Assembly (NCBI GenBank): GCA_035575475.1
Contig: DATLXT010000027.1
Location: forward strand, 1-37,609
Source of the DNA: Gemmatimonadales bacterium
GTDB taxonomy: Bacteria > Gemmatimonadota > Gemmatimonadetes > Gemmatimonadales > GWC2-71-9
DNA length: 37,609 nt
Direction of reading: 5' to 3'
Shown here: piece after piece, positions 19,501 to 36,825 of the stretch
Layout: each line of letters opens with the position of its first letter
Numbering within the stretch: position 1 is the stretch's first letter
Made by a program: the position numbers and the translations under genes
Notes under the pieces: model-generated
Database searches by the model: none
What the model saw: only the letters and a program-made list of their open reading frames with translations
Told to the model about the DNA's origin: nothing

Positions 19501-20083
19501 CTGGAGCGACCAGAAGGTCGCGCTCGCGGCCGTGGTGACGGTGGTGAAGCGCCAGGTCTCGAAGAAGACCGGCGCCGAATACGCGCGGCTCGTGCTCGAG
19601 GATTTTCACGGCTCGGCGGAGGCGCTGGTGTTCCCCGAAGCCTGGGCGAGGTTGAGTCAGGTAATCCGCCCCGACGCCGCGCTGCTGCTCACCGGGGGGT
19701 ACAGCGCCCGGGATCGCCACGAGGAGCAGGCCCCCTTCATCGTGGAACGGGCCGAACCGCTCGACGATCTCCGAGCCCGGGGCGCCATCGGGGTCGCCCT
19801 GCGGTGGTCGGCCGCCGCCCCTCCCGAGCCCGAGACGGCGCGCGCCGTGGCGGCGCTGTGTGCCGCCCACCCCGGCCCCGCCCCGCTGGTGCTGGAATGG
19901 TCGGAGGAGGAGGAGAACGGGCGGCAGCGGCCGCCCCTGACGGCCCGGTTCCGCAGCCGATCGCTGCGGGTGGACGCGGCCGACGACCTGCTCGCGGCCC
20001 TGCGGGAGCTCCTGGGGCCCGAGCGGGTGCGTCTGGTGCGGGCCGGCGCTGTCGGATCCAACGGCTGGAACGGAGCGACCTGA
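16571..20083 (+). CDS. dnaE: DNA polymerase III alpha subunit
   Basis: 1170 aa. PHP domain [16 protein letters not shown], polymerase core [19 protein letters not shown] and PDIDLDF, and a C-terminal OB-fold region. Confidence 0.97.
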
Positions 20084-20087
20084 ACGC

Positions 20088-21047
20088 ATGGCCACGCATG
20101 TGCTCGATTTCGAGCGGCCGCTCCTCGAGCTGGAGCGCCAGATCGAGGAGTTGAAGCGGGTGACCGGCGACCGCGCCGCCGGTCTCGGCAAGGAGCTGAA
20201 GCCGCTCGAGGACAAGCTGGCGGACCTGCGGGCGGAGATCTACCGGAACCTCACGCCCATGCAGCGCGTGCAGGTGGCGCGGCACCCGCGGCGTCCCTAC
20301 ACCCTCGACTACATCCGGATGGTGTTCACGGATTTCGTCGAGCTCCACGGCGACCGGCTCTTCCGGGACGACCCCGCGATCGTGGGCGGGTGGGCCCGGC
20401 TCGACGGGGCCAGCGTGATGGTGATCGGCCACCAGAAGGGGCGGGACACCAAGGAGAATCTGCGGCGCAACTTCGGCATGGCGCACCCCGAGGGGTACCG
20501 CAAGGCCCTGCGCCTCATGCGGCTGGCCGAAAAGTTTCGGGCGCCGGTGATCACCCTGGTGGATACGCCCGGGGCCTATCCCGGCCTGGGGGCCGAGGAG
20601 CGGGGCCAGGCGGAGGCCATCGCCCGCAACCTGATCGAGATGGCCCAGCTCCGGACGCCGATCGTGACGGCGGTGATCGGCGAGGGCGGTTCGGGCGGCG
20701 CGCTGGCGGTGGGCGTGGCCGACCGGGTGATCATGCTGGAGAACTCGGTCTATTCCGTCATCTCGCCCGAGGGGTGCGCGGCGATCCTCTGGAAGGACGC
20801 CTCCCAGAAGGAGCGGGCGGCCGAGGCCCTGAAGCTCACCGCCCAGGACCTGCTGGACCTGAAGGTCATCGACGAGATCGTGCCCGAGCCGCTGGGGGGC
20901 GCGCACGCCGATCCCGAGGCTGCGGCCGACGCCCTGGGGAACGCCCTGCGGCGTCATCTTCGGGAGCTGCGGAAGATCCGTACCGTGAAGCTGCTGCGAT
21001 TGCGGGAGCGGAAGTACCTGGCGATGGGCGTGGTACAAGAGCGGTGA
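20088..21047 (+). CDS. accA: Acetyl-CoA carboxylase carboxyltransferase alpha subunit
   Basis: [49 protein letters not shown] and [10 protein letters not shown]. Confidence 0.95.
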
Positions 21048-21048
21048 C

Positions 21049-21921
21049 TTGAACCCGATCGTCGAAGTCCGGTTCAAAGGCAACCGGAAAGAATACTTCA
21101 CCTGGACGTCCGCCGACCCGCTCCGCCTCGACGAGGCCGTGATCGTGGAGGTGGAGCGGGGTCAGGATCTGGGGCGGGTGTCGGCTCTGGGAGCGCTGGC
21201 CGCCCGGAAGTGCACTCGCTGCGGGGCGTGCGGGCTCCCGCCGGAGGCCCCCCTTCCCCTCCCTCCCGGCGAGAGTCCCAAACTCCGCCGGATCCTGCGG
21301 CGGGCCACGCGGGAGGAGGTCCGCCAGGCCGAGGAGCTGCGGCGGAGCGAGGACGAGGTGCGGCGCAAGGTCCGCGAGCGGGTGTTCCAGCACGCCCTCC
21401 CGATGAAGGTGTCCGACGCCGAGTGGCAGTGGGACCGGAAGAAGCTGACGGTTTATTTCACCGCGGACCAGCGGGTGGATTTCCGGGCGCTGGTGCGGGA
21501 CCTGGCCGCCCAGTACCGGGCCCGGATCGAGCTGCGCCAGATCAGCGCGCGGGACGAGGCCCGGCGTCTGGACGGCATCGGGCGCTGTGGCCGCCAGCTC
21601 TGCATCTCGAGCTGGCTGCCCGAGGCACGCCCGGTGAGTCTGTCGCTCGCCAAGGACCAGCGCCTCTCGCTCAACCCGGCGCAGATCTCGGGTCCCTGCG
21701 GCCGCTTGCTCTGCTGTCTCCACTACGAGCACCAGTTCTATGTCGAGAGCCGGAAGCGCTTCCCCAAGGAAGGGAAGCTGCTGCGCACGACGGCGGGCTC
21801 GGAGCGGGTGGTGGCGGTGGACATTTTCCGCGATCGGGTGACCCTGCGGCACGAGCCGGAGGGCGCGGTCCGGGTGGTGCCGCTCGAGCGCCTGCAGCGG
21901 GAGATCGAGGCCGGTGCCTAA
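21049..21921 (+). CDS. PSP1 domain protein (YaaT/RicT-like)
   Basis: PSP1 C-terminal domain LTVYFTADQRVDFRALVRDLAAQYRARIELRQISARDEARRLDGIGRCGRQLC ... GPCGRLLCCLHYE. TTG start 1 nt after the accA stop. Confidence 0.85.
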   Translation: MNPIVEVRFKGNRKEYFTWTSADPLRLDEAVIVEVERGQDLGRVSALGALAARKCTRCGACGLPPEAPLPLPPGESPKLRRILRRATREEVRQAEELRRSEDEVRRKVRERVFQHALPMKVSDAEWQWDRKKLTVYFTADQRVDFRALVRDLAAQYRARIELRQISARDEARRLDGIGRCGRQLCISSWLPEARPVSLSLAKDQRLSLNPAQISGPCGRLLCCLHYEHQFYVESRKRFPKEGKLLRTTAGSERVVAVDIFRDRVTLRHEPEGAVRVVPLERLQREIEAGA

Positions 21922-23446
21922 GTTCTACCTCACGACGGCCATTGACTACTCGAACGGCGAGCCCCACCTGGGGCACGCACTCGAGAAGATCGGGGCCGAC
22001 TGCATCGCGCGCTACCGCCGTCTCGCGGGCGACGACGTCCATTTTCTCATGGGGATGGACGAGCACGGCCAGAAGGTGGCGCTCGCCGCCGAGCAGGCCG
22101 GGCTCCCGCCGCAAGCGTGGGTGGATCGGATCGCCGAGACCTTCGAGCGCACCTGGCGTCGCCTGGGGTGCTCCCACACCGATTGGATCCGGACCACGGA
22201 GCCCCGACACGTCCGCTCGGTCACCAGTTTCATCGAACGCATCCGGCAGCACCACCCCGAGGATCTGTACGAAGGCGAGTACGAGGGGCTCTACTGCGTG
22301 GGATGCGAGGAGTTCAAGACCGCGGCGCAGATCGCGAACGGCCGCTGCGTCGAGCACCCCACGCTCGACCTGGTCCCGACGCGCGAGCGCAACTATTTCT
22401 TTCGCCTGAGCCGCTACACCGCGGAACTGCGCCGCCGCATCGGATCGGGTGAGTTCCGGATCGAGCCCGAGATCCGGCGCAACGAGATCCTGAGCCTGCT
22501 GGAGCAGGGGCTCGAGGACGTGTCGGTCTCCCGGGCGCGGTTCCCCTGGGGGATCCCGTTCCCCGGGGCGCCGGACCATACGGTGTACGTCTGGTTCGAC
22601 GCCCTGATCAACTATCTCACCGCCACCGGCTTCCCCGCGCCGGGCTACGAGCGGCTGTGGCCCGCCGACCTGCACGTGATCGGCAAGGGGATCACGCGGC
22701 TGCACTGTTGTCTCTGGCCCGCCATGCTGCGGTCGGCCGAACTCCCGTGGCCCCGCATGGTGTACGCGCACGGCTACGTGCAGTGGGGGGGCGCCAAGGT
22801 GTCGAAGTCGGCGGGGGGCGCCCTGAGCGTGGATGAGGCCATCGAACGGCACGGCCCCGACGCCCTCCGGTATTTCCTGCTCCGCGAGGTGGGGTTCGAG
22901 CACGACGGCGACTTCACCTGGGAGCGGTTCGACGCCCGCTACACCGCCGACCTCGCGGACACGGTGGGCAATCTGGTCTCGCGCACGCTCGCCATGGTGC
23001 GGCGCTACCGCCGCGGGGCGGTGCCCCCCTCGGCGGAGACGCCGCTCGACCGGGCCGCCGGCGCCCGCATCGCCGAGTACCGCGCCGCGATGGACGCCTA
23101 CCGCCTGCACGAGGGCGCGGCCGCCGCGGTGGCGCTGGCCGCGCAGGCCAACCGCTACGTCCAGGAGAGCGCGCCCTGGACTCTGGCCAAAGAGGGCCGC
23201 GAGGCGGAGCTCGATCCGGTGCTGGGAAGCCTGGTCCGGACGGTGGCCCGGCTGGCCGTGCTCCTCGCGCCCTTCATGCCGGCCAAGGCGGAGGAGGTGT
23301 GGCAGGTGCTCGGAACCGGCCGGCCCCTCGCGGCCGTGCGGCTGGGGGACCTCGAAACTCCTCTACCCGAGGGCGCGCAAGTGGGCGAGCCGCCGATCCT
23401 TTTCCCCAAGCTCCAGCCCGCGCGCCGGCGGCCCGCGACCGCGTGA
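21914..23446 (+). CDS. metG: Methionine--tRNA ligase
   Basis: AIDYSNGEPHLGHALE (HIGH-type), KVSKS (KMSKS-type), and zinc knuckle CVGCEEF...GRCVEH. The GTG start overlaps the PSP1 3' end by 8 nt. Confidence 0.95.
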   Translation: MPKFYLTTAIDYSNGEPHLGHALEKIGADCIARYRRLAGDDVHFLMGMDEHGQKVALAAEQAGLPPQAWVDRIAETFERTWRRLGCSHTDWIRTTEPRHVRSVTSFIERIRQHHPEDLYEGEYEGLYCVGCEEFKTAAQIANGRCVEHPTLDLVPTRERNYFFRLSRYTAELRRRIGSGEFRIEPEIRRNEILSLLEQGLEDVSVSRARFPWGIPFPGAPDHTVYVWFDALINYLTATGFPAPGYERLWPADLHVIGKGITRLHCCLWPAMLRSAELPWPRMVYAHGYVQWGGAKVSKSAGGALSVDEAIERHGPDALRYFLLREVGFEHDGDFTWERFDARYTADLADTVGNLVSRTLAMVRRYRRGAVPPSAETPLDRAAGARIAEYRAAMDAYRLHEGAAAAVALAAQANRYVQESAPWTLAKEGREAELDPVLGSLVRTVARLAVLLAPFMPAKAEEVWQVLGTGRPLAAVRLGDLETPLPEGAQVGEPPILFPKLQPARRRPATA

Positions 23447-23467
23447 TTTGGGTCACCGCCCGCCTCG

Positions 23468-23496
23468 TTGACGCCTTCGGAGCCGGGGCGTATTAT
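23468..23496 (+). promoter_or_regulatory. Putative sigma70-type promoter for the M23 peptidase gene (TTGACG-17 nt-TATTAT)
   Basis: -35 TTGACG (23468-23473), a 17-nt spacer, then -10 TATTAT (23491-23496), 30 nt upstream of the ATG at 23527. Confidence 0.5.
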
Positions 23497-23526
23497 TGGG
23501 CTCCCAACTTCGCGCGAAACCGCTAG

Positions 23527-24465
23527 ATGCAGCGTAAGAACGACCGCCGCTGGACGGTCATGCTGGTGCCCCACGGCTCGGGGAGCTCGCGCGCCGTGGA
23601 GGTCTCGCAGACCGTCGTCAAGGCCCTGCTGGGCATGGGGAGCGTGGTGGCGCTCCTCCTGCTGGTGCTGGGCGGCGCGGCGATCGCGCGCGGAGTCAAC
23701 ATCACCAAGAGCCGGGCGCTGGAGCGCGAGAACCGGCTGCTGGCGAGCGAGATTCAGCGCATGCGCGAGCAGCTGGTGTCGCTGCGCGACACCCTCAACG
23801 AGTTCGGCGAGCGGGAGCAGGAGCTGCGGCTCCTGGCCGGGCTCACGCCCACCGATCCGGCGGTTCAGCAGGGCGGGATCGGCGGGCCTGCCGGGGCCTG
23901 GTCGGAGCGCGACAGTCTGAGCGCGGCGGGTCCGCTGGGGGCGGAGGTGTTGGCCGCGCGCCTCGACATGGAAGCGCTCACCCGCCGCGCCAGCATTCTG
24001 GTCCGTTCGATCGGGGAGGCCTACGATTCGCTGTCGCGCCACCAGGCGCGGCTCGCGGCGACGCCTTCGATCATGCCCACCAAGGGGTGGCTGACCAGCG
24101 CGTTCGCGCGGGAGCGGGTGCATCCCATTCTCCATCTGGCGCGGCCCCACGAGGGGATCGACGTCACCGCCCCGATGGGGGCGGAGATCGAGGCTCCGGC
24201 GGCCGGGGTGGTGACCGAGGTGCGCTGGGTGGAGGGGTATGGGAACATGCTCACCATCGACCACGGGTACGGCATCGTCACGCGCTACGCCCACTGCTCG
24301 AAGATTCTGGTGGGGCGAGGCACCCGGGTGAAGCGGGGGCAGGTGGTGGCGCTGGTGGGCTCGACCGGCCTTTCGACCGGGCCGCATCTGCATTATGAGG
24401 TGTGGGTGAACGGGAAGCCGGTGAATCCGCTGCGGTACGTGCTGCCGGACGCGATCGTGGACTGA
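23527..24465 (+). CDS. M23-family metallopeptidase (peptidoglycan DD-endopeptidase-like) with N-terminal TM and coiled-coil
   Basis: HEGIDVTAPMGAEIEAPAAGVV and STGLSTGPHLHYEVWVNGKPVNP (HxxxD / HxH). N-terminal membrane segment GMGSVVALLLLVLGGAAIA. Confidence 0.9.
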   Translation: MQRKNDRRWTVMLVPHGSGSSRAVEVSQTVVKALLGMGSVVALLLLVLGGAAIARGVNITKSRALERENRLLASEIQRMREQLVSLRDTLNEFGEREQELRLLAGLTPTDPAVQQGGIGGPAGAWSERDSLSAAGPLGAEVLAARLDMEALTRRASILVRSIGEAYDSLSRHQARLAATPSIMPTKGWLTSAFARERVHPILHLARPHEGIDVTAPMGAEIEAPAAGVVTEVRWVEGYGNMLTIDHGYGIVTRYAHCSKILVGRGTRVKRGQVVALVGSTGLSTGPHLHYEVWVNGKPVNPLRYVLPDAIVD

Positions 24466-24556: not shown

Positions 24557-25954
24557 CTACGGGTTCACGTCAATGCACTGGGTGAAGTTCGGATTGTTGG
24601 TTTCTTCGAACGGCACCGGCATGTTGACCGCCGACCCGAAGCTCCCTCCCTTGAAGTACGGCCCCACGGGGAAGACGTTATCCGGCGCGAACCCCAGCGA
24701 CCCGTACTGGCGAATCATCCGGCGCATGTCCCCCAACCGGTGCCCGGTGCTGAACATCCAGAACGCCCGCTCGCGGAAGTGGGTGTAGATGCGCGAGCGG
24801 TCGTCGGCGAAGGTATCGGCGATGGCGGCGAGCCTCGGGCCCCGCACGAAGGGCGGCTGGTTCGCCACCGCCTGCCCGCCCTCGATCGGCGGATACAGGG
24901 TGGTATCGGTCCGGAGGGCGTTCAGGGTATCGAGCCACGCCGTGCGGTCGCCGGCGTTGAAGAGCGCCTCGGCGATGATCAGCCGGGCCTCGAGGCCCGT
25001 GGCGATGGGCACGTCGCTCTCCTGTCCGTAGATCCCCTGACGCGTCACCAACAACGGCAGCGCGCTGTCGAAGATCCGATCGGGGCCGGTGACGTTGGGG
25101 AGGCGCGGATCGTTGGCGCTGATGAAGTCCAGACCGTTCCCGCCTTCGCGGTCCACCATGGTGTAGCGCTTGGGGTCGTTGTTGAGACCCCAAATCTCGT
25201 TGTCCACGGTCGTGATGGAGTGCTCGAGGGACCACTTGAAAGTCTTGGGGATACCGGCCACGGCGGCGGCCGCCGCCGCGTACTGCCCCAGGTCAACCAG
25301 GGCGCGTCCCTTGACGATGGAGGCGAAGGAGCGCACCGACGCCCCTTCCGCGCCCGCGGCCTGGGCGATGGCCGAATCCGCATGCGCCACGGCCCGCCGG
25401 AAGATCGAATCGTTGGTGATGGGGGCGCCGGTGACGATCTGGCCGCCCTCGTCCAGTCCGCTGAGCGGGTGCCCGTTGCAGTAGTGCTCACCGACCGCCG
25501 TCTCGACGTACGCCATGACGGCGAACATGAGCCCGATCAGGCGCGTGGAGTCGGGGGTGAAGGTCCGGAGCGCCCGAATGGCCGCCTCGGCCTGGACCCG
25601 CGGCCGGTTCACCGCCAGATACAGGTCGTCATTGAACGTGTTGTCCGGCTGGAAAATGCGCTGGTCCTGGTTGTTCCGCTGGACGAAGGTATCGCCTGAC
25701 CGCCACTCGTCGGCCAGGAGGCCGCCGAACATGAACAGGTTGTCGGCCCCTTCGATGCCGCTCATGGCCTGCGTGAGCCGGAAGATCGCGCCGTTCGCGA
25801 TGGCCAGCGCCGCGCCGGCCGAATTCGCCTCGAGGATGATGTCCGGATCGGTGACCTCCAGCACCCGGTCGCACGCTTGCAGGGGAACCCCTCCGAGGAG
25901 CACCGCGAGCCCGGTCCCCCGCAGCCACCGCCGAACGCCGTCACGTCGTTCCAT
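24557..25954 (-). CDS. SusD/RagB-family outer-membrane lipoprotein (module A)
   Basis: Lipoprotein signal LLGGVPLQAC. It lies directly (18 nt) downstream of a SusC gene. C-terminal FRERAFWMFSTGHRLGDMRR is typical of the SusD/RagB family. Confidence 0.85.
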   Translation of the reverse strand: MERRDGVRRWLRGTGLAVLLGGVPLQACDRVLEVTDPDIILEANSAGAALAIANGAIFRLTQAMSGIEGADNLFMFGGLLADEWRSGDTFVQRNNQDQRIFQPDNTFNDDLYLAVNRPRVQAEAAIRALRTFTPDSTRLIGLMFAVMAYVETAVGEHYCNGHPLSGLDEGGQIVTGAPITNDSIFRRAVAHADSAIAQAAGAEGASVRSFASIVKGRALVDLGQYAAAAAAVAGIPKTFKWSLEHSITTVDNEIWGLNNDPKRYTMVDREGGNGLDFISANDPRLPNVTGPDRIFDSALPLLVTRQGIYGQESDVPIATGLEARLIIAEALFNAGDRTAWLDTLNALRTDTTLYPPIEGGQAVANQPPFVRGPRLAAIADTFADDRSRIYTHFRERAFWMFSTGHRLGDMRRMIRQYGSLGFAPDNVFPVGPYFKGGSFGSAVNMPVPFEETNNPNFTQCIDVNP

Positions 25955-25972: not shown

Positions 25973-28900
25973 TCAGAAGCTGGCGTTCAGGCGCAGCGTC
26001 CAGTAGGTGGGCGGCGGCTGCGTCTGGAAGTCGGTTTGCAGGCCGCCGGCGACGTAGCCGGTCTCGGGATCCATCCCCGAGTAACCCGTGGTGTGCCACA
26101 GGTTGCGGCCCGCGAGCGTCAGGCTCACGCGCTGGGACCGCATGGCAGCGGCCCAGGCGTCCGGCAAGGTGTAGCTCACCGAGAACTCCCGGAACCGCAA
26201 CATGTCCACCGGCTCGATGAAGCCCGCTTGAGTCCGGGCCGGGTGCTCCCGGAGCGCCACCACCCGCGCCTGCTTCCAGAGCGGGGCCTTCGGGTCGATG
26301 AGGCCGTCGCAGTTGAGCCGGGACTCGCACCGGATGCGCTCGGTGCCGTTGAGCTGGTACCGCCCGCCCTTGTAGTCGAACAGCCCGGAGATCCGCAGGC
26401 GGCGGTTGAACAGCTCGATCCCGGTCGAGAGGGCCAGCTCGTCCTCGGGGACGTTCGGGCCGAAGAAGACCGCGGTATCGCCCACGACGACCTCGGACGC
26501 CTCCAGGATACCGTCCCCGTTCACGTCGTTGTACCCCAGGATGGGCCGCTGCCAGTAGCTATCCACCGGGTAGCCCTCGCGCTGCTGGATGGTGGTGCCC
26601 ACGATCGGCGGCACGCCGAGTTCGAGGATGGTGTTGCGGTTGTGCGACCCCGAAAGGTTCACGTCCCAGGCGAGCGCCGGGGTGTTCACCACGATGGCGT
26701 TCAGCACCACCTCCACGCCCCGGTTCCGAAGGGACCCCAGGTTCTCGAACCGGCTCCCGGAGAGACCGGCGGAGGGCGGGAGCGGGCGCGAGATCAGGGC
26801 GTCCTTGGTGACCTTGTTGTAGTAGGTGAACTCCAGGTTGACGCGGCTGTCCAGGAAGGCGGCGTCGAATCCCACCTCGAGTTCGGTGGCCCGCTCGGGC
26901 TTGAGCGTCGGATCCCCCACGAGGCTGAAAACCAAGGCCGGCCGATCGGCACCCTCGAACTTCGCCGTGGTGGGCGCGAAGAACGTCAACGCATCGGTGG
27001 ATCCGGGTTGCCGCCCCGACGCCCCCAGCGCCATCCGCGCCCGCAGGTTGGAGAGCCAGGAGGGCGCGGGGAAGAACGGTTCCTGAGAGACCACCCACGA
27101 GGCGCTGAACTTGGGGTAGTACACCGCGCTGAAGTCCTTCCCGAACGCGCTGTTGTCGTCCATCCGGACCGCGCCCGTCAGGTACAGGCGATCGTTCCAG
27201 CTCACCTGCTGCTCGAGGAAGGCCCCCAGCGTCTTCGAGGCGGTGTAGGTCTCGTCCGCGAACAGTTCCGCGGCCGGGGTGATGGTCGAAGCCCCGGGGG
27301 CGAAGTTCTCGCCGTAGGCACCGTTCCGGGCGAACACGTTCTTGATGTACTGCAAGCCGCCCGTGGTCCGAGCCTGGGCTCCGAAGAGCTGGGGGAGCCC
27401 GTAACTGGCCGAGAGGTTGGCGTCCAGCGTGTAGTCGTGGAACGTGGTGCGGTTCTCCTCCTTGAACCCCTCCTTGAAATCGGAGAACGCCACGCACTCG
27501 TCGCGACGGCAGAGGTCCTCGTCCACGCGGCTGGTGAAGTCGATCCCGGCCACCACCCGGCCGCTGAGCCACGCCGTGGGACGATAGGTGATCGTCCCGC
27601 TTCCGATGAACCGGTTGATGTCCTGCCGAACGGTTTCCGAGAAGAACTCGTCCGGGGTGAAGAGGCGGTAGCCGTAGTTGGGGAGCCCGGTGATCCCCGA
27701 CACGTTGTCCTTGTGTCCGGGGCCGCCCAGGGCGTTGGAGAGCAGGCCGGTCGTGTTGTTGTCCGTCTGCGGCAACCGCTGGTTGCTCGAGATGAAGCTG
27801 GTGAACGCGGCCGCGTCCAGTTTGGGGCTGAGCGAGGCGTGGAGATTAGCCCGCAGGCTCACCCGCTCCCGGGCGTTGGGGCGATACTGCTCGTAGGGCA
27901 CCTCGGTCACGCCGCGGGTCTGGAGCACCCGCCCGTACGCGAAGTCCGGCATCCGCAGCACCCCGATTTCTTCTTCGTACTCGCTCGAGAGGAAGTAGCG
28001 GAGCGCATCCGAGCCGCCCGAGACCTGCGCCCCCACCTGCCCTCGCCAGCCGGTCCCGAGGGGCGAGGCGTCCGGGTCCTCGAACAGGTTGAAGGTCGTC
28101 ACGCTGTCCTGCACGCATTGCGCCCTCGCCACCTGGGTCAGGAGGCACTGTACGGCGTTAGTGGGGAGCGAATTGGTCGAGGACGTGGTCCCGGTCCGCC
28201 ATCCGCGATAGGCGATGGGCCAGTCGTTGTAGTCCTTGATCACCCCCAGCTCGGAGTACACGTTCCACTGCGCCGCCCCGGCGCGCCCGCGCTTGGTGCG
28301 GATCACGATCACGCCGTTGGCCGCGTCGGTCCCGTACAGCGTGGCCGCCGACGGGCCCCGCACGATCTCGACCGACTCGATCTCCTCGGGGTTGATGTCG
28401 TTGACCCGGCTGGGGTTGGTTCCGCCGATGCCGATGCTCGAGGAACCGGTGGCAGCCTCCATCCGAATCCCATCGATGTAATAGATGGGCTCGTTGGAGA
28501 GCGACAGGCTGCTGGTGCCCCGGATGCGCACTCGGGCTTCGGCACCGGTGATGTTGCCGGGAAGCACCTGAACCCCGGCGGCCTTCGTGACCAGCAGGTC
28601 CGCCATGTTGGCGATCGGCGCGGTCATCACCAGACTGTCCGCCTGGATGGTGGCGACAGAGGTGCCCAACTCCTTCTTGGCCTGATCTCCGGTGGCGGTC
28701 ACCACCACCTGATCGAGCGAATACGGCTGCCAGGAGAGCGTGACGTCCTCCGTGGTGACCGCGTCGGCCGCCACGGTGACCGTCCGGCTGGCGGCGCCGT
28801 AGCCGATGGCCGTCACCCGCACAGTCGCCTGCCCCGCAGGCACGTTGACCAGCGCGTAGCGGCCCTCGGCGTTGGTCAGGGTGACCAGGGTGGTTCCCAC

Positions 28901-29059
28901 GATGACCACGCGAGCGCCGGCGATCGGTTGGCCGCTGGCCTGGTCGGTCACCCGCCCTTCCACGCGTCCCTGCTGCGCCGTCGCCGCCGCGGGCCACGCC
29001 AGCACCACAGCGAGCACGCCGATGCCCGCGATGCTCGAACGGAAACGCCGTGTGTTCAT
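25973..29059 (-). CDS. SusC/RagA-family TonB-dependent outer-membrane transporter (module A)
   Basis: Signal peptide ...WPAAATAQQ. CarboxypepD_reg-like domain GRVTDQASGQPIAGARVVIVGT...AEGRYALVNVPAG. TonB box-like LDQVVVTA. Plug SVEIVRGPSAATLYGTDAANGVIVIRTK. Large barrel ending ...LRLNASF. Confidence 0.92.
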   Translation of the reverse strand: MNTRRFRSSIAGIGVLAVVLAWPAAATAQQGRVEGRVTDQASGQPIAGARVVIVGTTLVTLTNAEGRYALVNVPAGQATVRVTAIGYGAASRTVTVAADAVTTEDVTLSWQPYSLDQVVVTATGDQAKKELGTSVATIQADSLVMTAPIANMADLLVTKAAGVQVLPGNITGAEARVRIRGTSSLSLSNEPIYYIDGIRMEAATGSSSIGIGGTNPSRVNDINPEEIESVEIVRGPSAATLYGTDAANGVIVIRTKRGRAGAAQWNVYSELGVIKDYNDWPIAYRGWRTGTTSSTNSLPTNAVQCLLTQVARAQCVQDSVTTFNLFEDPDASPLGTGWRGQVGAQVSGGSDALRYFLSSEYEEEIGVLRMPDFAYGRVLQTRGVTEVPYEQYRPNARERVSLRANLHASLSPKLDAAAFTSFISSNQRLPQTDNNTTGLLSNALGGPGHKDNVSGITGLPNYGYRLFTPDEFFSETVRQDINRFIGSGTITYRPTAWLSGRVVAGIDFTSRVDEDLCRRDECVAFSDFKEGFKEENRTTFHDYTLDANLSASYGLPQLFGAQARTTGGLQYIKNVFARNGAYGENFAPGASTITPAAELFADETYTASKTLGAFLEQQVSWNDRLYLTGAVRMDDNSAFGKDFSAVYYPKFSASWVVSQEPFFPAPSWLSNLRARMALGASGRQPGSTDALTFFAPTTAKFEGADRPALVFSLVGDPTLKPERATELEVGFDAAFLDSRVNLEFTYYNKVTKDALISRPLPPSAGLSGSRFENLGSLRNRGVEVVLNAIVVNTPALAWDVNLSGSHNRNTILELGVPPIVGTTIQQREGYPVDSYWQRPILGYNDVNGDGILEASEVVVGDTAVFFGPNVPEDELALSTGIELFNRRLRISGLFDYKGGRYQLNGTERIRCESRLNCDGLIDPKAPLWKQARVVALREHPARTQAGFIEPVDMLRFREFSVSYTLPDAWAAAMRSQRVSLTLAGRNLWHTTGYSGMDPETGYVAGGLQTDFQTQPPPTYWTLRLNASF

Positions 29060-29104: not shown

Positions 29105-29614
29105 TTACCGGAGTTGGATCTGACCCCGGAGCTCACCTCCGGGGTTCCGTCTAGTGTGCACGTTCACGTACACGTTGCCGGCGCGCATCAGCGATAGCAG
29201 CGAATCGAACCGCGCGCGGGCGTCGGCGCCGAAGCCGGCCGGCAGCTGGGTCAGCTGAGCGGGTCGCAACTGGCCCACGCCCAGCGGCCCCGTGTAGCCC
29301 GCGGTGTTGCGGGTGGGGCCGCCGTACAACGTGACGATCACGGGACCGGGCGCGCCCGCGGCGCCCTGGTGGATGTGGGCCACCGTGGGCGTATCGATCC
29401 CGACGACATCGAGGCGATAGATGAGCAGCGAGTCGAACACGACGCTGAAGACAGCCGTGCCGCTGGCGGTGGTCGTGACCGCGGGAACCTCGTTCGCCCC
29501 TGAGAGCGTCGCCTGGAAGCCCTCGCCCCCGAGCACCGGGAAGGACACTTCATCACAGGCGGCAAGCCCCATCAGGCCCAAGACGAGGAGCCCCCGCGCG
29601 CGCGCAAGAGACAT
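29105..29614 (-). CDS. CHRD-domain lipoprotein
   Basis: Lipobox LMGLAAC. FQATLSGANEVPAVTTTASGTAVFSV ... VAHIHQGAAGAPGPVIV ... VYVNVHTRRNPGGELRGQI matches the CHRD consensus. I prefer the ATG at 29614 (GGAGG 6 nt upstream) over the GTG at 29638. Confidence 0.8.
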   Translation of the reverse strand: MSLARARGLLVLGLMGLAACDEVSFPVLGGEGFQATLSGANEVPAVTTTASGTAVFSVVFDSLLIYRLDVVGIDTPTVAHIHQGAAGAPGPVIVTLYGGPTRNTAGYTGPLGVGQLRPAQLTQLPAGFGADARARFDSLLSLMRAGNVYVNVHTRRNPGGELRGQIQLR

Positions 29615-29910
29615 CTTCCCCCTCCGTGAAAGGATCACGAGGTCACCCGCGACGCGGCGCGAGAGTCATGGCAGACCGGCTGAAACCCGAGCGGGCACCG
29701 AACGCCGAGCCCCACCCGCTCCTAGCTCACTCGTCGGCGCCTTACACGGACCCGGCCGGGCGTGAGCCAGTGAGCTCGAGCGAAGTGGCTGCCGACACGG
29801 TAGCGACCATGACCCCCTCCCGAAGCGCGAGTCTCCGCACCCGTTATCCTGCAGCCCAACCGGGAACCCCACAAGACCCCCCTGGCCCCCCCGAGCGGGC
29901 TCCGTGGGCC

Positions 29911-30321
29911 TCAGCGGGTCCGTACCAGGATCGCCCCTCCCGCATGGCCGGTGCCGAACCGGGTGGTCGCGTCGTTGCCGTCCAGGTATTCCATCTGGAG
30001 CACCATTTCGGCCCGGATGCTGGTGAGGGAACCTGGCCCTCCGTAGCGCACCCCGTCGAGGTAGACGACCACCTCCCCCGCGCTCGGGTCCTGGATGCTG
30101 ATCTGCCCCCGCCGTCGCAGCCACTCGGGGCGGAGCCGGGAGACGGCCTCGTACGCGGTGGTGGCCGAGACCGCCTGGATCTCCTCGGCCAGGAGCAGGG
30201 CGCGGGAGGGGGCGGCGCCGGTCGGGCGAGTGGCGGCGGAACACCCCCAAGCAACGGCCGCCAGGACCACCGGAGCCCAGAGACCGGCGCCACGGCTCCC
30301 GATGTGCGTTGGCAATGTCAT
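29911..30321 (-). CDS. Small secreted protein (possibly a lipoprotein) with a stand-alone TonB-receptor Plug-like domain (paralog P1)
   Basis: 136 aa from the ATG at 30321 (GGAGG 4 nt upstream). Signal peptide with Cys (VVLAAVAWGCS). LLLAEEIQAVSATTAYEAVSRLRPEWL ... VVVYLDGVRYGG ... MEYLDGNDATTRFGTGHAGGAILVRTR resembles the Plug of the neighbouring SusC proteins. GC3-rich codons. Confidence 0.7.
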   Translation of the reverse strand: MTLPTHIGSRGAGLWAPVVLAAVAWGCSAATRPTGAAPSRALLLAEEIQAVSATTAYEAVSRLRPEWLRRRGQISIQDPSAGEVVVYLDGVRYGGPGSLTSIRAEMVLQMEYLDGNDATTRFGTGHAGGAILVRTR

Positions 30322-30354
30322 GGCTCCTCCGGTACGAGTCCCGAGGGTCGAAAC

Positions 30355-30383
30355 TTGACGCCCCAGGCGCCGGGCGCAAGAAT
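30355..30383 (+). promoter_or_regulatory. Putative sigma70-type promoter for paralog P2 (TTGACG-17 nt-AAGAAT)
   Basis: -35 TTGACG (30355-30360), a 17-nt spacer, then -10 AAGAAT (30378-30383), about 30 nt upstream of the GTG at 30414. Confidence 0.4.
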
Positions 30384-30413
30384 AGAGGTGGCCACTGCGG
30401 CGAGGCCGGCACG

Positions 30414-30842
30414 GTGAAGCAGGTCGCGTTGGTTGCCTGCGTCTGGCTGGCGCTGGTGGCGTGCTCCACGCGGCGTCAGCCATCGAGTGTCCTGACCGGC
30501 CCATCGGGCGGGCGGCTGATCACGGCGGACATGATCGAGGCGAGCGGCGCTACGACGGCCTGGGACGCGCTCCGGCGGACCGTCCCGAACATCTCCTTTC
30601 GCGAGACCAGCCGCGGAACACCGGCGCGGGTGGTCCGCCGGGGCCGGTCAAGCATCTATCTGAACGACCAGCCCCGGGTGGTGCTGGATGGCGCCACGCT
30701 GTCGGACTTCCAGGTGTTGGACCAGATCCCCGCGCGAGACGTCTTCAGCATCGAGGTCCTGAGCGGTATCCACGGCACGACCTACTACGGCACGGGCGCC
30801 GCGAACGGGGTGATTCTCATTCGCACGCGTACGGCTCCGTAA
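30414..30842 (+). CDS. Small lipoprotein with a stand-alone TonB-receptor Plug-like domain (paralog P2)
   Basis: 142 aa from the GTG at 30414. Lipobox WLALVACS. ITADMIEASGATTAWDALRRTVPNISF ... VVLDGATL ... SIEVLSGIHGTTYYGTGAANGVILIRTR is close to the SusC Plug [28 protein letters not shown]. Confidence 0.76.
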   Translation: MKQVALVACVWLALVACSTRRQPSSVLTGPSGGRLITADMIEASGATTAWDALRRTVPNISFRETSRGTPARVVRRGRSSIYLNDQPRVVLDGATLSDFQVLDQIPARDVFSIEVLSGIHGTTYYGTGAANGVILIRTRTAP

Positions 30843-30868
30843 CCGACGGACTCCGGCGGCACAACGAC

Positions 30869-30906
30869 GACGGGGGAGCCCGGTGATCGGCTCCCCCGTC
30901 CCTTTT
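30869..30906 (+). terminator. Rho-independent terminator after P2 (between convergent genes)
   Basis: 12-bp stem GACGGGGGAGCC / GGCTCCCCCGTC with an 8-nt loop, followed by CCTTTT. Confidence 0.72.
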
Positions 30907-30919
30907 GCGCTCCTCCCTG

Positions 30920-32278
30920 TCAGGGCGTCGTGGTCGAGCACGCCCCAGTGTAGTTCGTGTTGTTTCGTTCCTCGAATGGGACCGGCAGGTTGACATCGTC
31001 CCCGTACGTCACGCCCTTGGGCGAGACCCCGGTGGGGAAGACCTCGTCCTCCGTCCGGCCGTACTGACGCATGAGGCGCCGCAGGTCACCCAGCCGATGG
31101 CCCGTGAGAAACAACCAGAACGCCCGCTCGCGGAACATCAAGTCTTCCCGCCCCCGGGCCGTGCCCGGATCAGCGAGCGGTCCCAGCCCGGCCACCGGCC
31201 CGTTCGCCCGGATGTAGTTCAGAGTGTCCAGCCACGCGCCGGCGTTCCCCGCCTGGAGCAGCGCCTCGGCGATGATGAGTTTGGCCTCGAGTCCGTCGGC
31301 GATGGGCACCGGAGTGGTCCGGGTCGGGTACTTGAGGGAGTTCCACTGTGGCGTGACCGCATCGAAGCCCACGCCGTCGGTGGGGTCCCGCACGACCTGC
31401 ACGCGCGGGTCGTTGGCACTCCGGAAATCGAGTCCCGTCCCGGCACTCCCGTCACGGTCGGCGACCGAGAAGCGTTCCGAGATCCAGTTGAACACGTGGA
31501 CCCCGTTCTGCTGGCGACCGGTGGTCACTGTGTGCGTGGTGCGGTATTGGAAGGTCAACGGCACCCCGGTGACGGTTGCCGCCGCGGCGGCAAACTGCCC
31601 GAGGTTCAGCTGCGCTCGGGCCTTCCCCACCCGCGCCAGATTCGCCCGGGCGACCGTCGCCGAATCGGTGGCGGTCAAATAGACGAGGGCGCTGTCGAAC
31701 CGCGCGATGGCGAGGTCGAAGATCTCGGTCGTGCTCTTGGGAGTTCCGAGGCCCGCCTCCAGGGAACTGAACGGCACGCCGGAGCAGTAGCTCTCGCCGA
31801 AGAACACGTAGGTGTAGCCGGCGAGCGCGAGGGCCTCTCCCACCCGCCGCTCGGGGGTGGGCGCGTACTGCTGCAACAGCCCCGCGGCGCTCTCCAGCGA
31901 CACCCGCGCGCGCTGAAGGTTGCGAAAGACCGCCGTGAGGGTGCCATTGCGCTCGTCGATGGATCGGTTCTCGTACTCCTGGCGCGTGGGGAACGTCTCG
32001 GAGTTCATGAGCTCGTCGCTCATCGAGCCGCCGACCAGAATCTGGCCCTCGGTACCGCCGGCGTCGCCGATGATGGCGAAGGAGAAGTCGCCGATCCCAC
32101 CGGCGAACGCGGCGGCTGCCCCGGCCGCGCTCTGGAGATCGCGGGGATTCACGATATCCGGGTCCGTGACTTCCAGGACCTCGTCCACGGAGCACGCGCC
32201 CAATGCCAGTGCCAGGCCGCCGGCCGCCAACAGGCGCAGGATACGCGGCATGGTCGCCTTCTTTGGAGTTCGGTTCAT
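30920..32278 (-). CDS. SusD/RagB-family outer-membrane lipoprotein (module B)
   Basis: Lipobox LALALGAC. 18 nt downstream of SusC. The N-terminal VLEVTDPDIV matches SusD of module A. C-terminal FRERAFWLFLTGHRLGDLRR. GGAGGA 8 nt upstream of the ATG. Confidence 0.85.
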   Translation of the reverse strand: MNRTPKKATMPRILRLLAAGGLALALGACSVDEVLEVTDPDIVNPRDLQSAAGAAAAFAGGIGDFSFAIIGDAGGTEGQILVGGSMSDELMNSETFPTRQEYENRSIDERNGTLTAVFRNLQRARVSLESAAGLLQQYAPTPERRVGEALALAGYTYVFFGESYCSGVPFSSLEAGLGTPKSTTEIFDLAIARFDSALVYLTATDSATVARANLARVGKARAQLNLGQFAAAAATVTGVPLTFQYRTTHTVTTGRQQNGVHVFNWISERFSVADRDGSAGTGLDFRSANDPRVQVVRDPTDGVGFDAVTPQWNSLKYPTRTTPVPIADGLEAKLIIAEALLQAGNAGAWLDTLNYIRANGPVAGLGPLADPGTARGREDLMFRERAFWLFLTGHRLGDLRRLMRQYGRTEDEVFPTGVSPKGVTYGDDVNLPVPFEERNNTNYTGACSTTTP

Positions 32279-32296: not shown

Positions 32297-35200
32297 TTAA
32301 AAGCCCAGGTTGACGCGGAAGATCCAGTACGTCACCGGGGGTTGGGTCAGGAAGTCGCGCACGAAGTCCGACTGCCCGATCTGGTTGATCTCCGGGTCTA
32401 CCCCGGTGTAGTCCGTGAACGTGGCGAGGTTGCGCCCGGTCACGGTGAAGCTCATCCGCTGCGCCCGCAGCGCCCGCGCCCAGGTGTCGGGCGCGTTGTA
32501 GGTGAGCGACAGCTCCCGCAACTTGAGGAACGTCGCATCCTCGATGTAAGGGCCCTGCGTCCGGCCGGTGGGGATGCTGCGGGCCGCGACCGCCCGCGCT
32601 TGGTCCCACAGCGGCGCCGAGGGATCGTTGATGGCTCGGCAGTTGTTCGCCGCCGACGAGGTGCAGCGGAAGTAGTCGGTCAGGTTGAACTGCTTGAAGT
32701 CTCCCCGGTAGTCCAGCTGGCCGCCCAGACGCAGCCGGTTGTTGAACAGCGACACCCCGCCGTTGAGGCTGAGCTCGGTACGCGGGATCGACGACCCCAG
32801 GAACTCCGCCGTGTCGCCCACGACGATTTCGCTCAGCTCGATGATCCCATCGCCGTCGGCGTCCGACCACGAGCGCAGCGGCCGCTCCCAGAAGCCGAAG
32901 AGGGGGTACCCGGGCACGTGCCGCTGCACCCCGGCGATGATCGGCTGCACGTTCTCACCCAGGGTGATGAGCTTGTTGATGTTGCGCGACCCGGCGAGGG
33001 TGAGGTCCACACCCACCGACGGCCCGATATTGAAGGTGGTCGTGATCAACCCCTCGACCCCCTTGTTCTCGACCGAGCCGATGTTCTCGAAGCGTGACGC
33101 CGCCGCCCCGAGCGATGGGGGCAGGATGCGCTGCACCAGTGCGTCGGTGGTCTTCTTGCGGTAATAGGTGAGCTCGAGATGCGCCTTCCCCTCCAGGAAG
33201 TCGGCATCGAAGCCGAGCTCGATCTCGGCCGACCGCTCCGGCTTGAGCGAGTCATTGCCTACGGCGGCGATGATCAGACCCGGCGTGTCGGTGCCGTTGA
33301 TCGTCGCTGTGACGTTCTGGAAGAACCGCTGGGCGTCGGTGCTCCCCGGCTGCACCCCGGACTGCCCATAGGCCGCGCGAAGCCGCAGGTTCGAGACCGG
33401 CGCCGCGGCCGGGAAGAAGGGTTCGTCAGAGACGACCCAGGATATCTGGGCCTTGGGGTAGGCCGCCGAGCGGAAGCTGGCGCCAAAGGCGCTGTTGTTG
33501 TCCACCCGCAGGCCGAGGTCCAGGAACAGCCGGTCCTTCCAACCAAACAACTGGTCCACGTAGAACCCGAGCGTGATGGTTTCCGTGGTGGTCTCGCCCG
33601 CGGTCTTGAGCGCACCCGCGCTGACCGTCTTGCCGCCAGGCGCGAACTCCGATCCGGTGGCCGTGACGCCGAAGAACCAGTCCCGGAGATACTGCGCGCC
33701 CGCCGACGTCTTGGAGGTCAGTTCCGGACGGAGCGTGAAGCTGGCGGTCCCGCTCACATCCACCGTGGTTTGGGCGATCTCGAAGCGGTTGTCGGACCGG
33801 CGGCCCCGCCGGAACGTGGCGAACGCCGGGCCCTCGTTCAGTCCCTGGAACTGGAGGTCCAGGCGGTTGGTGTAATCCAGCCCCACGGTCGCGCGGGCCG
33901 TGAGGTAGTCGGTCGGGCGCCAGTTGGCGTTGCCGCTACCCGTGAAACGGGTGATGTCCTGCTCGGTCAGAATGGCGAACACCTCGCCCGGCCGGAAAAA
34001 CCCCCACTCCTGGCCCGCGCGGGCCTTCCCGAAGTAGCCGCTGGGCAACATCCCCGTCACGTTGTTGTCGTTCTGCGGCAGACGCCCGTCGCTCTTGACG
34101 AGCCCGAGGTTCACCGAGACGTCCGCCCGGTTGGACAGCGTGGCCTGCACATTCGAGCGCACGCTGAACTTCTTCACGTCATTGGGACGGTACGTCTCGT
34201 ACGGCAGCTCCGACACCTGCCGTTCGGCCGCGATCCGCGCATACTCCCCCTCGGGCAGGCGGTAGTGGCCGAGTTCGTCCTCGTATTCGGCCGAGAAGAA
34301 GTACCGCGCCTGCTCGCTGCCCCCCGATACCTGCGCGCCCACCTGCCCCCGCCATCCGGTGCCCAGGAACGTGGTAGAATCGTTCATCAGGACGTTGAAG
34401 CTCGTCAGGCTATCGATCACGCACGTGCCGGCCGCAAAGGACGTCAGGAAGCATTGCGTGGCCGTGTTGCCCGGAACGGTCCGGCCCCAGCTGAAGTAGT
34501 TGGTGGGGTAGGTATTGTTGTCGTTCAGGACGCCGATCTCGGAGTAGACCAGCCAGGTCGGGCGCCCCGCCAAGCCGCGCTTGGTGGTGATGCGGATGAC
34601 GCCGTTGGCTGCCTGCGTCCCGTACAGCGTCGCCGCCGACGGCCCCTTGATAATCTCCACCGACTCGATGTCTTCGGGGTTGATGTCGTTGATGCGAGAG
34701 AACGACTGACCCCCGGTGCCGACCGACAGGGAGTTCGAGCCGCTCTCGATCCGGACACCATCCACGTAGTATACCGGTTCGTTGGACAGCGAGAGGCTCG
34801 ACAGCCCGCGAATCCGCACCCGGGCGCCGGCGCCCGTGGTGCCGCTGCTCTGGAGCACCTGGACGTTGGCGGCCCGACCGGACAGGAGGTCGGCGAAGTC
34901 GCTGATGGGCGCCGCCTGCGTGACCTGGTCAGCCTTGACGGTCGCCACCGCGTTCCCCAGCTCCCGCGCTCGGGCGGCCTCACCGGTCGCGGTGATCGTC
35001 ACAGCATCGAGGGAGACGACCGCCTGCCGCAACGCAAAGTCTGCCGTGGCCATGGCGCCCGCCTCGACCGTGACGGTCTGGATGGCGCTGGCGTACCCGA
35101 TCACCGACACGCGGACCTCGTGAGTCCCCACAGGGACACTCCGCAGGGTGTAACGACCTTCCACGGTGGTGACGGCCGCGATGTTGGTGTTACCCAACAG

Positions 35201-35356
35201 CACGCGCGCGCCCGCCACCGGCTGGCCCGTCACCTGATCGGTCACCGTCCCGGTGACCGTCCCCGTTTGCTGCGCCGCCGCCACGAGCGGCAGCGCCAGC
35301 ACCAGACCGACCAGGGCCGCCACCGAAACGATCGGACGAAACTTGTCGATGTTCAT
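32297..35356 (-). CDS. SusC/RagA-family TonB-dependent outer-membrane transporter (module B)
   Basis: I take the start as the ATG at 35356 ([36 protein letters not shown] upstream), parallel to the module A SusC. CarboxypepD_reg-like [21 protein letters not shown]. TonB box-like LDAVTITA. Plug [28 protein letters not shown]. Ends ...FRVNLGF. Confidence 0.92.
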   Translation of the reverse strand: [1019 protein letters not shown]

Positions 35357-35600
35357 CGCTAGTTCCTCTCCCAGATTGGGAAAACGATCCCTGCCCCACA
35401 ACGCGATCTCGCTCCGCTCCATCACCTCCTTGCAGGTAGGGCGACCTCGCTTCGAAAAGCGACAACTCGGCCGTCGCCGGGGCACGAGCCTCACTCCCAG
35501 CCTCCGTGGCGGGCAGGGCCGCGCTGAGGGCGCCCGGGCCCAGCCCACATAGGGATATCCCTGAGTTCCCCACTCGGCAAGCCCTGAGCCGGGATGGACG

Positions 35601-36401
35601 CTAAGGCACGACCGGAGGGACGGTATCGAAGGTGGCCAGCAGGAACAGCACCGTGTCTCCCATTTCCCGGCGCTGGGTCCGGTACCGCGAGACCTCGACC
35701 CGCTGGAGCTCGCTCAGGGCCCACGCCCCCAACAGCTCGGGGCGGATGGTCCCGTTGCCGTCGTCCCGCCAGTCGCAGACCACCTGCTCATTGAAGGCCG
35801 TCGATCCCTGACGCGCATAGATGAGCAGCACCTCGACCCGCGAGCTGTCATCCCCCACGGGCTCCCAGGTCACGCTCAGCGGCTGGTCGGTGGGCGGCCG
35901 CGCCGGGATCGGCGACAAGGCCTGGAGCGCCGGCGCGGTCAGCGAGGAAATGGTGGTGGCCGGAAAACCGCGGGGGGCGCCGGCAAGGCTGAAGGTCACT
36001 TCCGACCCGGGGACTATCGGCACATCGGGCGGGTTGGCGGCGTAGATGGTGACGCCAAAGCGGCGTATCGGCCGCAAGACCGCGGTGGTCGGTCCCGCCA
36101 CAAACAGGATGCTGTCCCCGGCGTCGACGTGGATGACGCTGACGTTGGTGGATTGCGGTACGAAGTCCCCTACCTGGCACGTATCCCCGGTCGAGCGCGA
36201 GTCACCAACCGGCGGGCGCCCCGCCAGGGCGAACAGCCCCTCGGGACGGGCCACGTAGCTCCCTTCGACAGACCGGGCGAAGAGCGTGAGCACGCCCACC
36301 GGGATCGTGGGTGCGGAGAACGTCGCTTCCCGGCAGGCGACCAGGGCCGCGCCCAGCGTGGCCCCGAGGAAGAGCCAGGGGATGGTTCGGGAGGCGCTCA
36401 G
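35601..36401 (-). CDS. Hypothetical lipoprotein (no recognisable domain), probable CTG start
   Basis: The ORF track starts at the GTG at 36299. The same frame is open upstream to 36446 and encodes a textbook lipoprotein signal SASRTIPWLFLGATLGAALVAC. The only start-like codon there is CTG at 36401-36399 (GGAG 7 nt upstream), 4 nt after the P3 stop. Confidence 0.6.
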   Translation of the reverse strand: MSASRTIPWLFLGATLGAALVACREATFSAPTIPVGVLTLFARSVEGSYVARPEGLFALAGRPPVGDSRSTGDTCQVGDFVPQSTNVSVIHVDAGDSILFVAGPTTAVLRPIRRFGVTIYAANPPDVPIVPGSEVTFSLAGAPRGFPATTISSLTAPALQALSPIPARPPTDQPLSVTWEPVGDDSSRVEVLLIYARQGSTAFNEQVVCDWRDDGNGTIRPELLGAWALSELQRVEVSRYRTQRREMGDTVLFLLATFDTVPPVVP

Positions 36402-36405
36402 CCTC

Positions 36406-36825
36406 TCACTCCGGTCTCGCGGGGGTGCCCCGAGTGTGCACGTGGATCACCCCGGCCAGGTTGTCGGACCCGAACCGCGCTTGGGCCTCGCTCGGGCTCA
36501 GGAACTCCACCCACAACGCCGAGCCCGCGGTCAGGCGCCGGAGCGACTCCGGCCCTCCCAAGCGCTGGCCGTCCAGGTATACCGTGACCTCGGCGGATGC
36601 CCGCGTCAGCGACGTCGGGCCCCTCGGCGTCGGCCGCAGCCAGCGGGGCCGGCGCATCCGGATCGCGTCGTACAGGGTCCCGGCCCCGGACTTCTCGATC
36701 TCTTCCTGAAGCAACACCCGGTCGGTCGAGGCTGCGGGCCCGGTATCGGATGTCCGGGCCGTTCCGCAGGCCGTGACCAGGAGCGCGACCCACAGCAGGA
36801 GAACCTTGCGCGACCACTGCATCAT
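36406..36825 (-). CDS. Small lipoprotein with a stand-alone TonB-receptor Plug-like domain (paralog P3)
   Basis: Start at ATG 36825 or 36822 (GGGAGG upstream). Lipobox ALLVTACG. It aligns almost without gaps to P1: VLLQEEIEKSGAGTLYDAIRMRRPRWL ... VTVYLDGQRLGG ... VEFLSPSEAQARFGSDNLAGVIHVHTR. Confidence 0.7.
   Translation of the reverse strand: MMQWSRKVLLLWVALLVTACGTARTSDTGPAASTDRVLLQEEIEKSGAGTLYDAIRMRRPRWLRPTPRGPTSLTRASAEVTVYLDGQRLGGPESLRRLTAGSALWVEFLSPSEAQARFGSDNLAGVIHVHTRGTPARPE

Follow-up and report, generated by a model that had tools for sequence, protein, structure and literature searches.

What can the Plug domain of a TonB-dependent transporter do when it is made without a barrel? 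This question is raised by a 37,609-nucleotide stretch of a Gemmatimonadales bacterium (GenBank assembly GCA_035575475.1, contig DATLXT010000027.1, positions 1–37,609 of the forward strand, hereafter the window; G+C content, about 70%), in which two small divergent genes, designated P1 and P2, lie between two pairs of genes for a SusC-type transporter and a SusD-like lipoprotein (SusC1/SusD1 and SusC2/SusD2). Together with a third gene in the window, P3, they are real and intact genes for lipoproteins whose only folded part is a trimmed Plug domain. An original prediction, made from the letters of the sequence, had described P1 and P2 as divergent open reading frames (ORFs) of 136 and 142 amino acids (aa) with a 92-bp spacer, and both coordinates and lengths were reproduced:

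29911–30321, minus strand: P1, 136 aa, ATG start, barrel-less Plug-like lipoprotein of the P1-type family
30322–30413: divergent spacer between P1 and P2, 92 bp
30414–30842, plus strand: P2, 142 aa, GTG start, barrel-less Plug lipoprotein of the P2-type family
36406–36825, minus strand: P3, 139 aa, barrel-less Plug-like lipoprotein of the P1-type family, canonical lipobox VTAC

The plug-lipoprotein genes show a coding-type GC3 (G+C content at the third codon position), the ATG of P1 is preceded by a strong Shine-Dalgarno sequence (GGAGGA), and the start point of P2 is shared with its homologues. P3, which is 45% identical to P1, is a third copy within the window. The lipobox of P2 (LVAC, ending in Cys17) is canonical and that of P1 (AWGC, Cys27) is atypical, as had been noted before; the Cys residue that ends the signal peptide nonetheless shows a conservation of at least 90% in both families. 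Judged from the lipobox and the conserved Cys, P1, P2, and P3 are thus predicted to be lipidated.

The region of about 110 aa following the signal peptide, which had been likened to the Plug of the adjacent SusC proteins, was indeed identified as such by profile and structure searches, with P1 at the borderline of the former. Thus, P2 matched the Pfam Plug hidden Markov model PF07715 with 55.7 bits (E 7.9e-15; gathering cut-off, 23.9 bits), P1 scored just under the cut-off (23.7 bits, E 6.9e-5; 24.1 bits when neighbouring stretches were included in the whole-genome scan), and P3 fell below it (17.1 bits). P2 gave, moreover, a partial match (29 bits) to the SusC/RagA signature TIGR04057, and no curated NCBIfam model matched P1. 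AlphaFold2 models built from the family alignments had a mean predicted local distance difference test score (pLDDT) of 83.8 for P2 and 83.5 for P1 (core, >95), and the top Foldseek matches of both models in the PDB were exclusively plugs of TonB-dependent transporters: SusC 8aa4_A was the best match of P2 (E 2.7e-6; template modelling (TM) score, 0.57), and PfeA, FepA, and BtuB were matched by P1 (E 5.8e-4 to 1e-3; TM score, 0.40–0.50). One β-hairpin of the plug sheet is present in the P2 model and absent from the P1 type. The fold is the same as that of the plug in SusC/RagA-type transporters (8aa4/8a9y, Bt1763 6zlt, and RagA 6sml), with which P1 and P2 have the motifs RG(x)SS, P-x-x-V-DG, IE-V-L-x-G, and YG...NGVI-I-T(K/R) in common.

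Unlike the SusC/RagA-type transporters, P1 and P2 have neither the 22-strand barrel nor the Ton box and the N-terminal extension (NTE), and carry a lipobox signal peptide instead. The P1-family profile covers BtuB residues 21–131, that is, the entire plug after the Ton box, and the P1 and P2 ORFs stop 0–5 residues past the last plug strand. No barrel fragments were detected in the flanks by tblastn with both SusC proteins (locus L004), and the P1 and P2 proteins gave no PF00593 match, in line with the barrel-less architecture that had been claimed. The claimed absence of a Ton box upstream of the plug also holds for both sequences: 15–17 unconserved residues separate the lipobox Cys from the strand aligned to the first SusC plug strand, and the Ton boxes of the two SusC proteins (QVVVTA and AVTITA) are situated about 15 residues upstream of the aligned first plug strand. 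This spacing indicates that the lipidated Cys occupies the Ton-box position and suggests that the proteins are membrane-tethered rather than pulled by TonB; a function as a decoy for TonB, one of the roles first envisaged, is therefore unlikely.

As the original prediction had stated, SusC1 and SusC2 each keep their own Plug, in the order CarboxypepD_reg, Plug, and barrel, and every barrel detected in this genome (88% complete) likewise has a plug of its own. A split receptor was considered in a genome-wide scan for plug-less barrels, in which the sole candidate (contig C344) proved to have its own divergent plug. In a maximum-likelihood tree of the plug region, whose support values are to be read with the caveat that the alignment was fitted to the P2 profile, the in-barrel plugs of the genome formed one clade (99/98) with both families outside it, the P1 type formed a single clade (99/97), and the P2 type was placed between the P1 type and the in-barrel plugs. 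These separate clades argue against P1 and P2 being truncated versions of the neighbouring SusC genes; with a plug of its own in every barrel, they are extra plugs rather than parts of split receptors. The P1 and P2 families would thus be two old, related Gemmatimonadota families that have long been split from the in-barrel plugs, as far as the tree can tell.

Both families are sizeable. The P1 profile matched 7,605 clusters at E ≤ 1e-3 and 4,814 at E ≤ 1e-10 in a full-library search, and nearly all of the best 150 clusters were 120–150 aa long; relatives of the same or nearly the same length numbered 118 for P1 and 52 for P2, at 40–84% identity. P1-type genes at E ≤ 1e-15 occur in 100 of 201 genomes of the phylum, with 1–7 copies each, and about 33 genomes contain clear P2-type orthologues (E below about 1e-27), about 40 in all. 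The relatives of the window found with a 13-sequence sub-alignment came from Gemmatimonadota metagenome-assembled genomes only. Most of the P1-type members score under the Pfam threshold and are annotated as ‘hypothetical’; one relative, P0154, bears the NCBI name ‘TonB-dependent receptor plug domain-containing protein’. The conserved positions of the families are the motifs of the fold core, not the loops.

The two families differ from in-barrel plugs at surface positions as well. Basic plug residues of FhuA, R93 and R133, form salt bridges to conserved glutamates of the barrel (PMC11658791); when these lock positions were mapped to FhuA by motif and spacing, which makes the assignment inferential, the first Arg was found to be kept in 50 of 50 rows of the P2 family and 104 of 111 rows of the P1 family, and the second K/R in 0/50 and about 0/111 rows, respectively, as against 11 of 12 in-barrel plugs of the same genome. 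The P2 family has S, T, D, N, or G at the second position. Furthermore, both families lack about 13 residues, relative to SusC1 and SusC2, in the apical loop that follows the DG motif. This loop corresponds to residues 85–96 of BtuB, as counted from the profile alignment, a stretch that we take to contact the substrate. The missing Ton box, the short loop, the lost lock residue, and the lack of a plug-less barrel argue that these proteins are not seated in a barrel in the canonical manner.

The sequence following the lipidated Cys bears on the cellular side of the proteins. An acidic post-Cys signature is the surface-export signal of Bacteroidota lipoproteins. The neighbouring SusD-like proteins have D/E at positions +2 to +6 after the Cys in 64 of 64 cases (CSVDE in SusD2), compared with 1/36 in the P2 family and 6/88 in the P1 family; in both families, the post-Cys stretches are mostly basic and begin with A, G, or S, never D. 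By analogy, the plug lipoproteins may be located on the periplasmic side if a similar sorting rule applies in this phylum. The median isoelectric points (pI) of the two families are 8.9 and 9.8, and the plugs of SusC1 and SusC2 are acidic (4.8–5.4); a charge complementarity was rejected as a diagnostic feature, other transporter plugs of the genome reaching pI 9.6.

The gene order provides the link to the transporters. In the window, P3, a protein of at least 232 aa, SusC2, and SusD2 follow each other on the minus strand, P2 comes next on the plus strand, and beyond it P1, a CHRD-domain lipoprotein, SusC1, and SusD1 are again on the minus strand, ahead of an M23-metG-PSP1-accA-dnaE block:

24557–25954, minus strand: SusD1, SusD-like lipoprotein
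25973–29059, minus strand: SusC1, complete SusC-type transporter (CarboxypepD_reg, Plug, barrel), downstream of P1 and the CHRD gene
29105–29638, minus strand: CHRD-domain lipoprotein (113.5 bits), between P1 and SusC1
30869–30900: G+C-rich hairpin, 12 bp, in the gap where the P2 and SusD2 genes converge
30920–32278, minus strand: SusD2, SusD-like lid lipoprotein (SusD_RagB, 21.2 bits, under the cut-off of 23.1; orthologues adjoin SusC)
32297–35356, minus strand: SusC2, complete SusC-type TonB-dependent transporter (CarboxypepD_reg, Plug, barrel)
35601–36299, minus strand: unknown protein, at least 232 aa, between P3 and SusC2, without a Pfam match

Among 46 P2-type genes gathered from whole genomes and metagenome contigs of Gemmatimonadota, 38 directly adjoin a SusC-SusD pair, facing its SusD gene tail-to-tail, and one further gene is cut by the contig end. 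The same convergent placement of P2 and SusD is seen in the metagenome contigs L001, L037, and L038; 20 of the 38 tail-to-tail loci lie outside the accA-PSP1-metG-M23 housekeeping synteny, in several families of the class, and the whole SusC-SusD-P2 trio has undergone tandem duplication in L042 and L045. By this conserved adjacency, the P2 type is probably a SusCD-associated accessory gene. P2 may also be a transcription unit of its own, to judge from a sigma-70-like site upstream of it (TTGACG-17-AAGAAT, 30355–30383, plus strand; a consensus match only) and from the hairpin at its 3' end, which is followed on the plus strand by CCCUUUUG and is likely to be a bidirectional terminator shared by P2 and SusD2 (folding energy of 30836–30925, –43.3 kcal/mol; z, –2.7).

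A different picture emerged for the P1 type: of the 40 sampled loci, only 14 have a transporter within 6 kb, against a chance expectation of 12–20% (a rough estimate from transporter density). The transporter-linked P1-type genes are on the same strand as SusC-SusD, upstream of the pair in the window, L060, L084, and L090, and downstream of it, sometimes with a CHRD gene between, in L002, L034, L079, L083, L087, L095, and L096. The remaining loci lie among unrelated genes, and neighbour clustering of 22 loci for conserved P1-type partners yielded only unrelated housekeeping genes outside the SusCD cases. P1 and P2 types are each found without the other in relatives. Thus, the functional divergent pair that had been proposed is not supported; the fixed P2-SusD order indicates that P2 belongs with SusC2/SusD2 and P1 heads the string P1-CHRD-SusC1-SusD1, so that the divergent arrangement of P1 and P2 is the junction of two modules.

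Several further features of the locus were noted. The string P3-unknown-SusC2-SusD2 mirrors P1-CHRD-SusC1-SusD1. SusC2 is likely to start at Met65 of the ORF at 32297–35548, and a signal peptide is not visible from the listed GTG start of the protein at 35601–36299. The position between a P1-type gene and SusD or SusC is repeatedly taken by a CHRD lipoprotein, as seen in the window, L002 (7173–7988), and L034 (5417–5980); we know of no established bacterial function of the CHRD domain. The dnaE-accA-PSP1-metG-M23 block (16571–24465 in the window) adjoins the SusCD locus family-wide (L001, L002, L032, L033, L040–L049, and L066), and in L002 a cupredoxin-like small lipoprotein (8408–8821, minus strand) fills the P2 slot between the P1-type gene and M23. 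Neither glycoside hydrolase nor sensor genes were found at the window locus, and the SusCD pairs therefore resemble core transporters more than parts of a polysaccharide utilisation locus.

Plug-like modules without a barrel also occur elsewhere. Non-transporter matches to the P1 and P2 profiles in the own genome were, besides P1, P2, and P3, confined to two proteins, C219 and C279, and no Plug-TonB_C fusion was found in it. C219 (1174–1656, minus strand) encodes a fourth plug lipoprotein without a barrel (about 157 aa; lipobox AGGC; Pfam Plug, 75 bits), which falls within the SusC plug clade (100/94, with the same caveat on the alignment). This nesting implies that barrel-less plugs arose more than once, and the C219 lipoprotein looks like an independent origin. 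C279 (4902–5762, plus strand) encodes an exported protein of about 245 aa without a barrel, comprising a CarboxypepD_reg-like domain, a Ton-box-like ‘AQVVEA’, and a weak plug-like C-terminal region, and its gene is divergent from that of a complete transporter; a similar CarboxypepD_reg+Plug protein of 248 aa is encoded in L002 (665–1411). Moreover, a conserved family of barrel-less exported proteins of 500–650 aa (L154, 1636–3660; L155, 987–2516; L156, 2038–3582; L157, 237–1946; L164, 1970–4339; L165, 2005–4503; and protein P0173) has, from the N-terminus, CarboxypepD_reg, a Ton-box-like ‘EVVVAGE’, a domain of about 250 aa without a Pfam match, a proline-rich linker, and one or two P1-type plug-like domains; these fusions may be a clue to the partner of the P1-type module. 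In P0175 and P0176, P1-type domains in tandem alternate with glycine-zipper-like hydrophobic segments (GVAAAAVGAGLGFFAS...), which suggests membrane-embedded tethers other than the lipid anchor.

For the three lipoproteins of the window, we infer a periplasmic location, contact with SusC, and a regulatory role. They most likely face the periplasm and would act outside any barrel, and we see about an even chance that they are accessory or regulatory modules at the inner face of SusC. In one kind of SusC-SusD module, the P2 type would then be a constant third gene, with its own promoter and pointing at the susD end; from such a fixed convergent position, the transporter of that module is the most likely object of P2, which would approach it from the periplasm, and its separate transcription fits a regulator or a sub-stoichiometric factor better than a core subunit. 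Candidate targets are the N-terminal region of SusC (NTE, Ton box, and exposed plug face) and the barrel rim, where P2 might tune gating, energisation, or plug re-seating. In Bacteroides, the NTE of SusC is essential for growth on levan, in a role that is unknown (PMC7782687). The P1 type would represent the same module in a still more reduced form that is present in several copies, sometimes within SusCD operons, as here, and sometimes free-standing or fused to larger exported proteins.

Several observations weigh against such an accessory role. The convergent P2 is not co-transcribed with SusCD, unlike the usual stoichiometric subunits, and since P2-type genes accompany no more than one or two of the SusCD pairs in a genome, the protein is not a general requirement of SusCD. 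About two thirds of the sampled P1-type genes stand beside unrelated housekeeping genes, a transporter being absent from the surrounding 6 kb, and the P1 type at least may have a transporter-independent role. The acidic post-Cys rule is based on Bacteroidota, and in SusD the acidic residues are perhaps just part of the fold. Finally, the isolated FepA plug is unfolded in solution according to PMC11658791, so that a free plug fold is not guaranteed despite the AlphaFold models.

A more specific form of action at the inner face of SusC, which we consider possible but doubtful, is that the lipoproteins are trans-acting gatekeepers: a tethered plug under SusC would hold the Ton box or the NTE and thereby set when TonB may engage, or would replace or re-seat an ejected plug. 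Rather unlikely is a linkage that is merely historical, the trimmed plug serving as a general-purpose binding or scaffold module of the periplasm, for instance for an envelope component, and the P2-SusD adjacency being a stable neighbourhood. Such a module would suit the mostly solitary P1-type genes, which lie beside genes for an EttA-like ABC-F protein, an amidase, alanine racemase, and RimP, as well as the P1-type domains that occur in tandem, between glycine-zipper-like segments, or at the C-terminus of the barrel-less exported proteins, and the predicted promoter and terminator of P2's own. It is opposed by the P2-SusD order, kept tail-to-tail in 20 loci of several families in which the other flank differs, by the duplication of the trio as a unit, and by the proportion of P1-type loci near a transporter, which exceeds the rough chance level. 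Improbable, too, is a biogenesis factor, that is, a plug-like chaperone for folding or inserting the plug of the neighbouring SusC, for which we know of no precedent: the specific pairing with one SusCD type and a separate transcription that permits sub-stoichiometric amounts would fit, but other SusC paralogues in the same genomes do without one.

The hand-off of substrate, as originally suggested, is weakened by the shortened apical loop, whereas a role in regulation or assembly at the periplasmic face of SusC may still apply. A free plug that binds substrate leaving SusC and passes it on would profit from a tether near the transporter exit, and the isolated FepA plug weakly binds siderophore, as described in PMC11658791; with the loop matching BtuB 85–96 cut by about 13 residues in both families and the conservation on fold-core motifs instead of loops, we regard such a catcher as quite improbable. 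Very improbable, in our view, is a cork acting in trans, with the lipoprotein entering a 22-strand barrel from the periplasm to seal or gate it, be it a plug-less barrel encoded elsewhere or SusC once its own plug has been pulled out. The entire plug core and the first lock Arg are retained, the N-terminal tether is placed where the plug chain exits the barrel toward the periplasm, and separately made FhuA cork and barrel can reportedly assemble in vivo (work attributed to Braun et al. 2003). Plug-less states of SusC have also been seen in vitro (PMC7782687). Each barrel found in the genome has its own plug, however, no family member retains the second lock residue, the loops at the apex have become shorter, and the P1 type has lost a β-hairpin of the plug sheet. 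That the ORFs are remnants of a decayed receptor or chance ORFs is hardly credible: high-GC DNA does yield many long spurious ORFs, and the score of P1 is just under the Pfam cut-off, but hundreds of relatives that match in length and share the lipobox and the conserved motifs, flanks free of barrel fragments, coding-type GC3, the Shine-Dalgarno sequence before P1, and the separate clades refute it for practical purposes.

For a small periplasm-facing lipoprotein that docks under a TonB-dependent transporter and changes its state, Llp of phage T5 may serve as a precedent. Llp binds the periplasmic face of FhuA; it is a superinfection-exclusion protein of the phage without sequence or fold relation to P1 and P2, the likeness being in the mode of action only. 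Superinfection exclusion proteins modulate the host receptor, as stated in the abstract of a preprint (bioRxiv 10.1101/2022.06.28.497910). The FepA N-domain (Usher et al. 2001, cited in PMC11658791) is likewise a plug without a barrel; that domain is artificial and largely unfolded, whereas the P1 and P2 families comprise thousands of natural barrel-less versions, maintained by selection, with changed surface residues. The architecture is catalogued under the PF07715-only annotation ‘plug domain-containing protein’, uncharacterised. An assigned function was found neither in Pfam and NCBIfam nor in the literature searched, consistent with the original prediction, and the literature searches returned no published work dealing with plug lipoproteins that lack a barrel or with a trio of SusC, SusD, and Plug. 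What is already known is therefore the Plug domain and its annotation; what is probably undescribed is plug lipoproteins as a SusCD accessory.

Debate continues on how plugs move within TonB-dependent transporters and what controls them. To our knowledge, nearly all work on SusCD systems has been done in Bacteroidota, in which the known extra parts are surface lipoproteins. A free plug family wired to one type of SusCD in another phylum would be a natural experiment that asks what a plug can do outside the barrel and what acts on the transporters from the periplasmic side, and it would give a name to thousands of ‘hypothetical’ proteins from soil metagenomes. If the tethered plugs are indeed gatekeepers, Gemmatimonadota would possess a three-part SusC-SusD-Plug machine, the third part of which is separately regulated.

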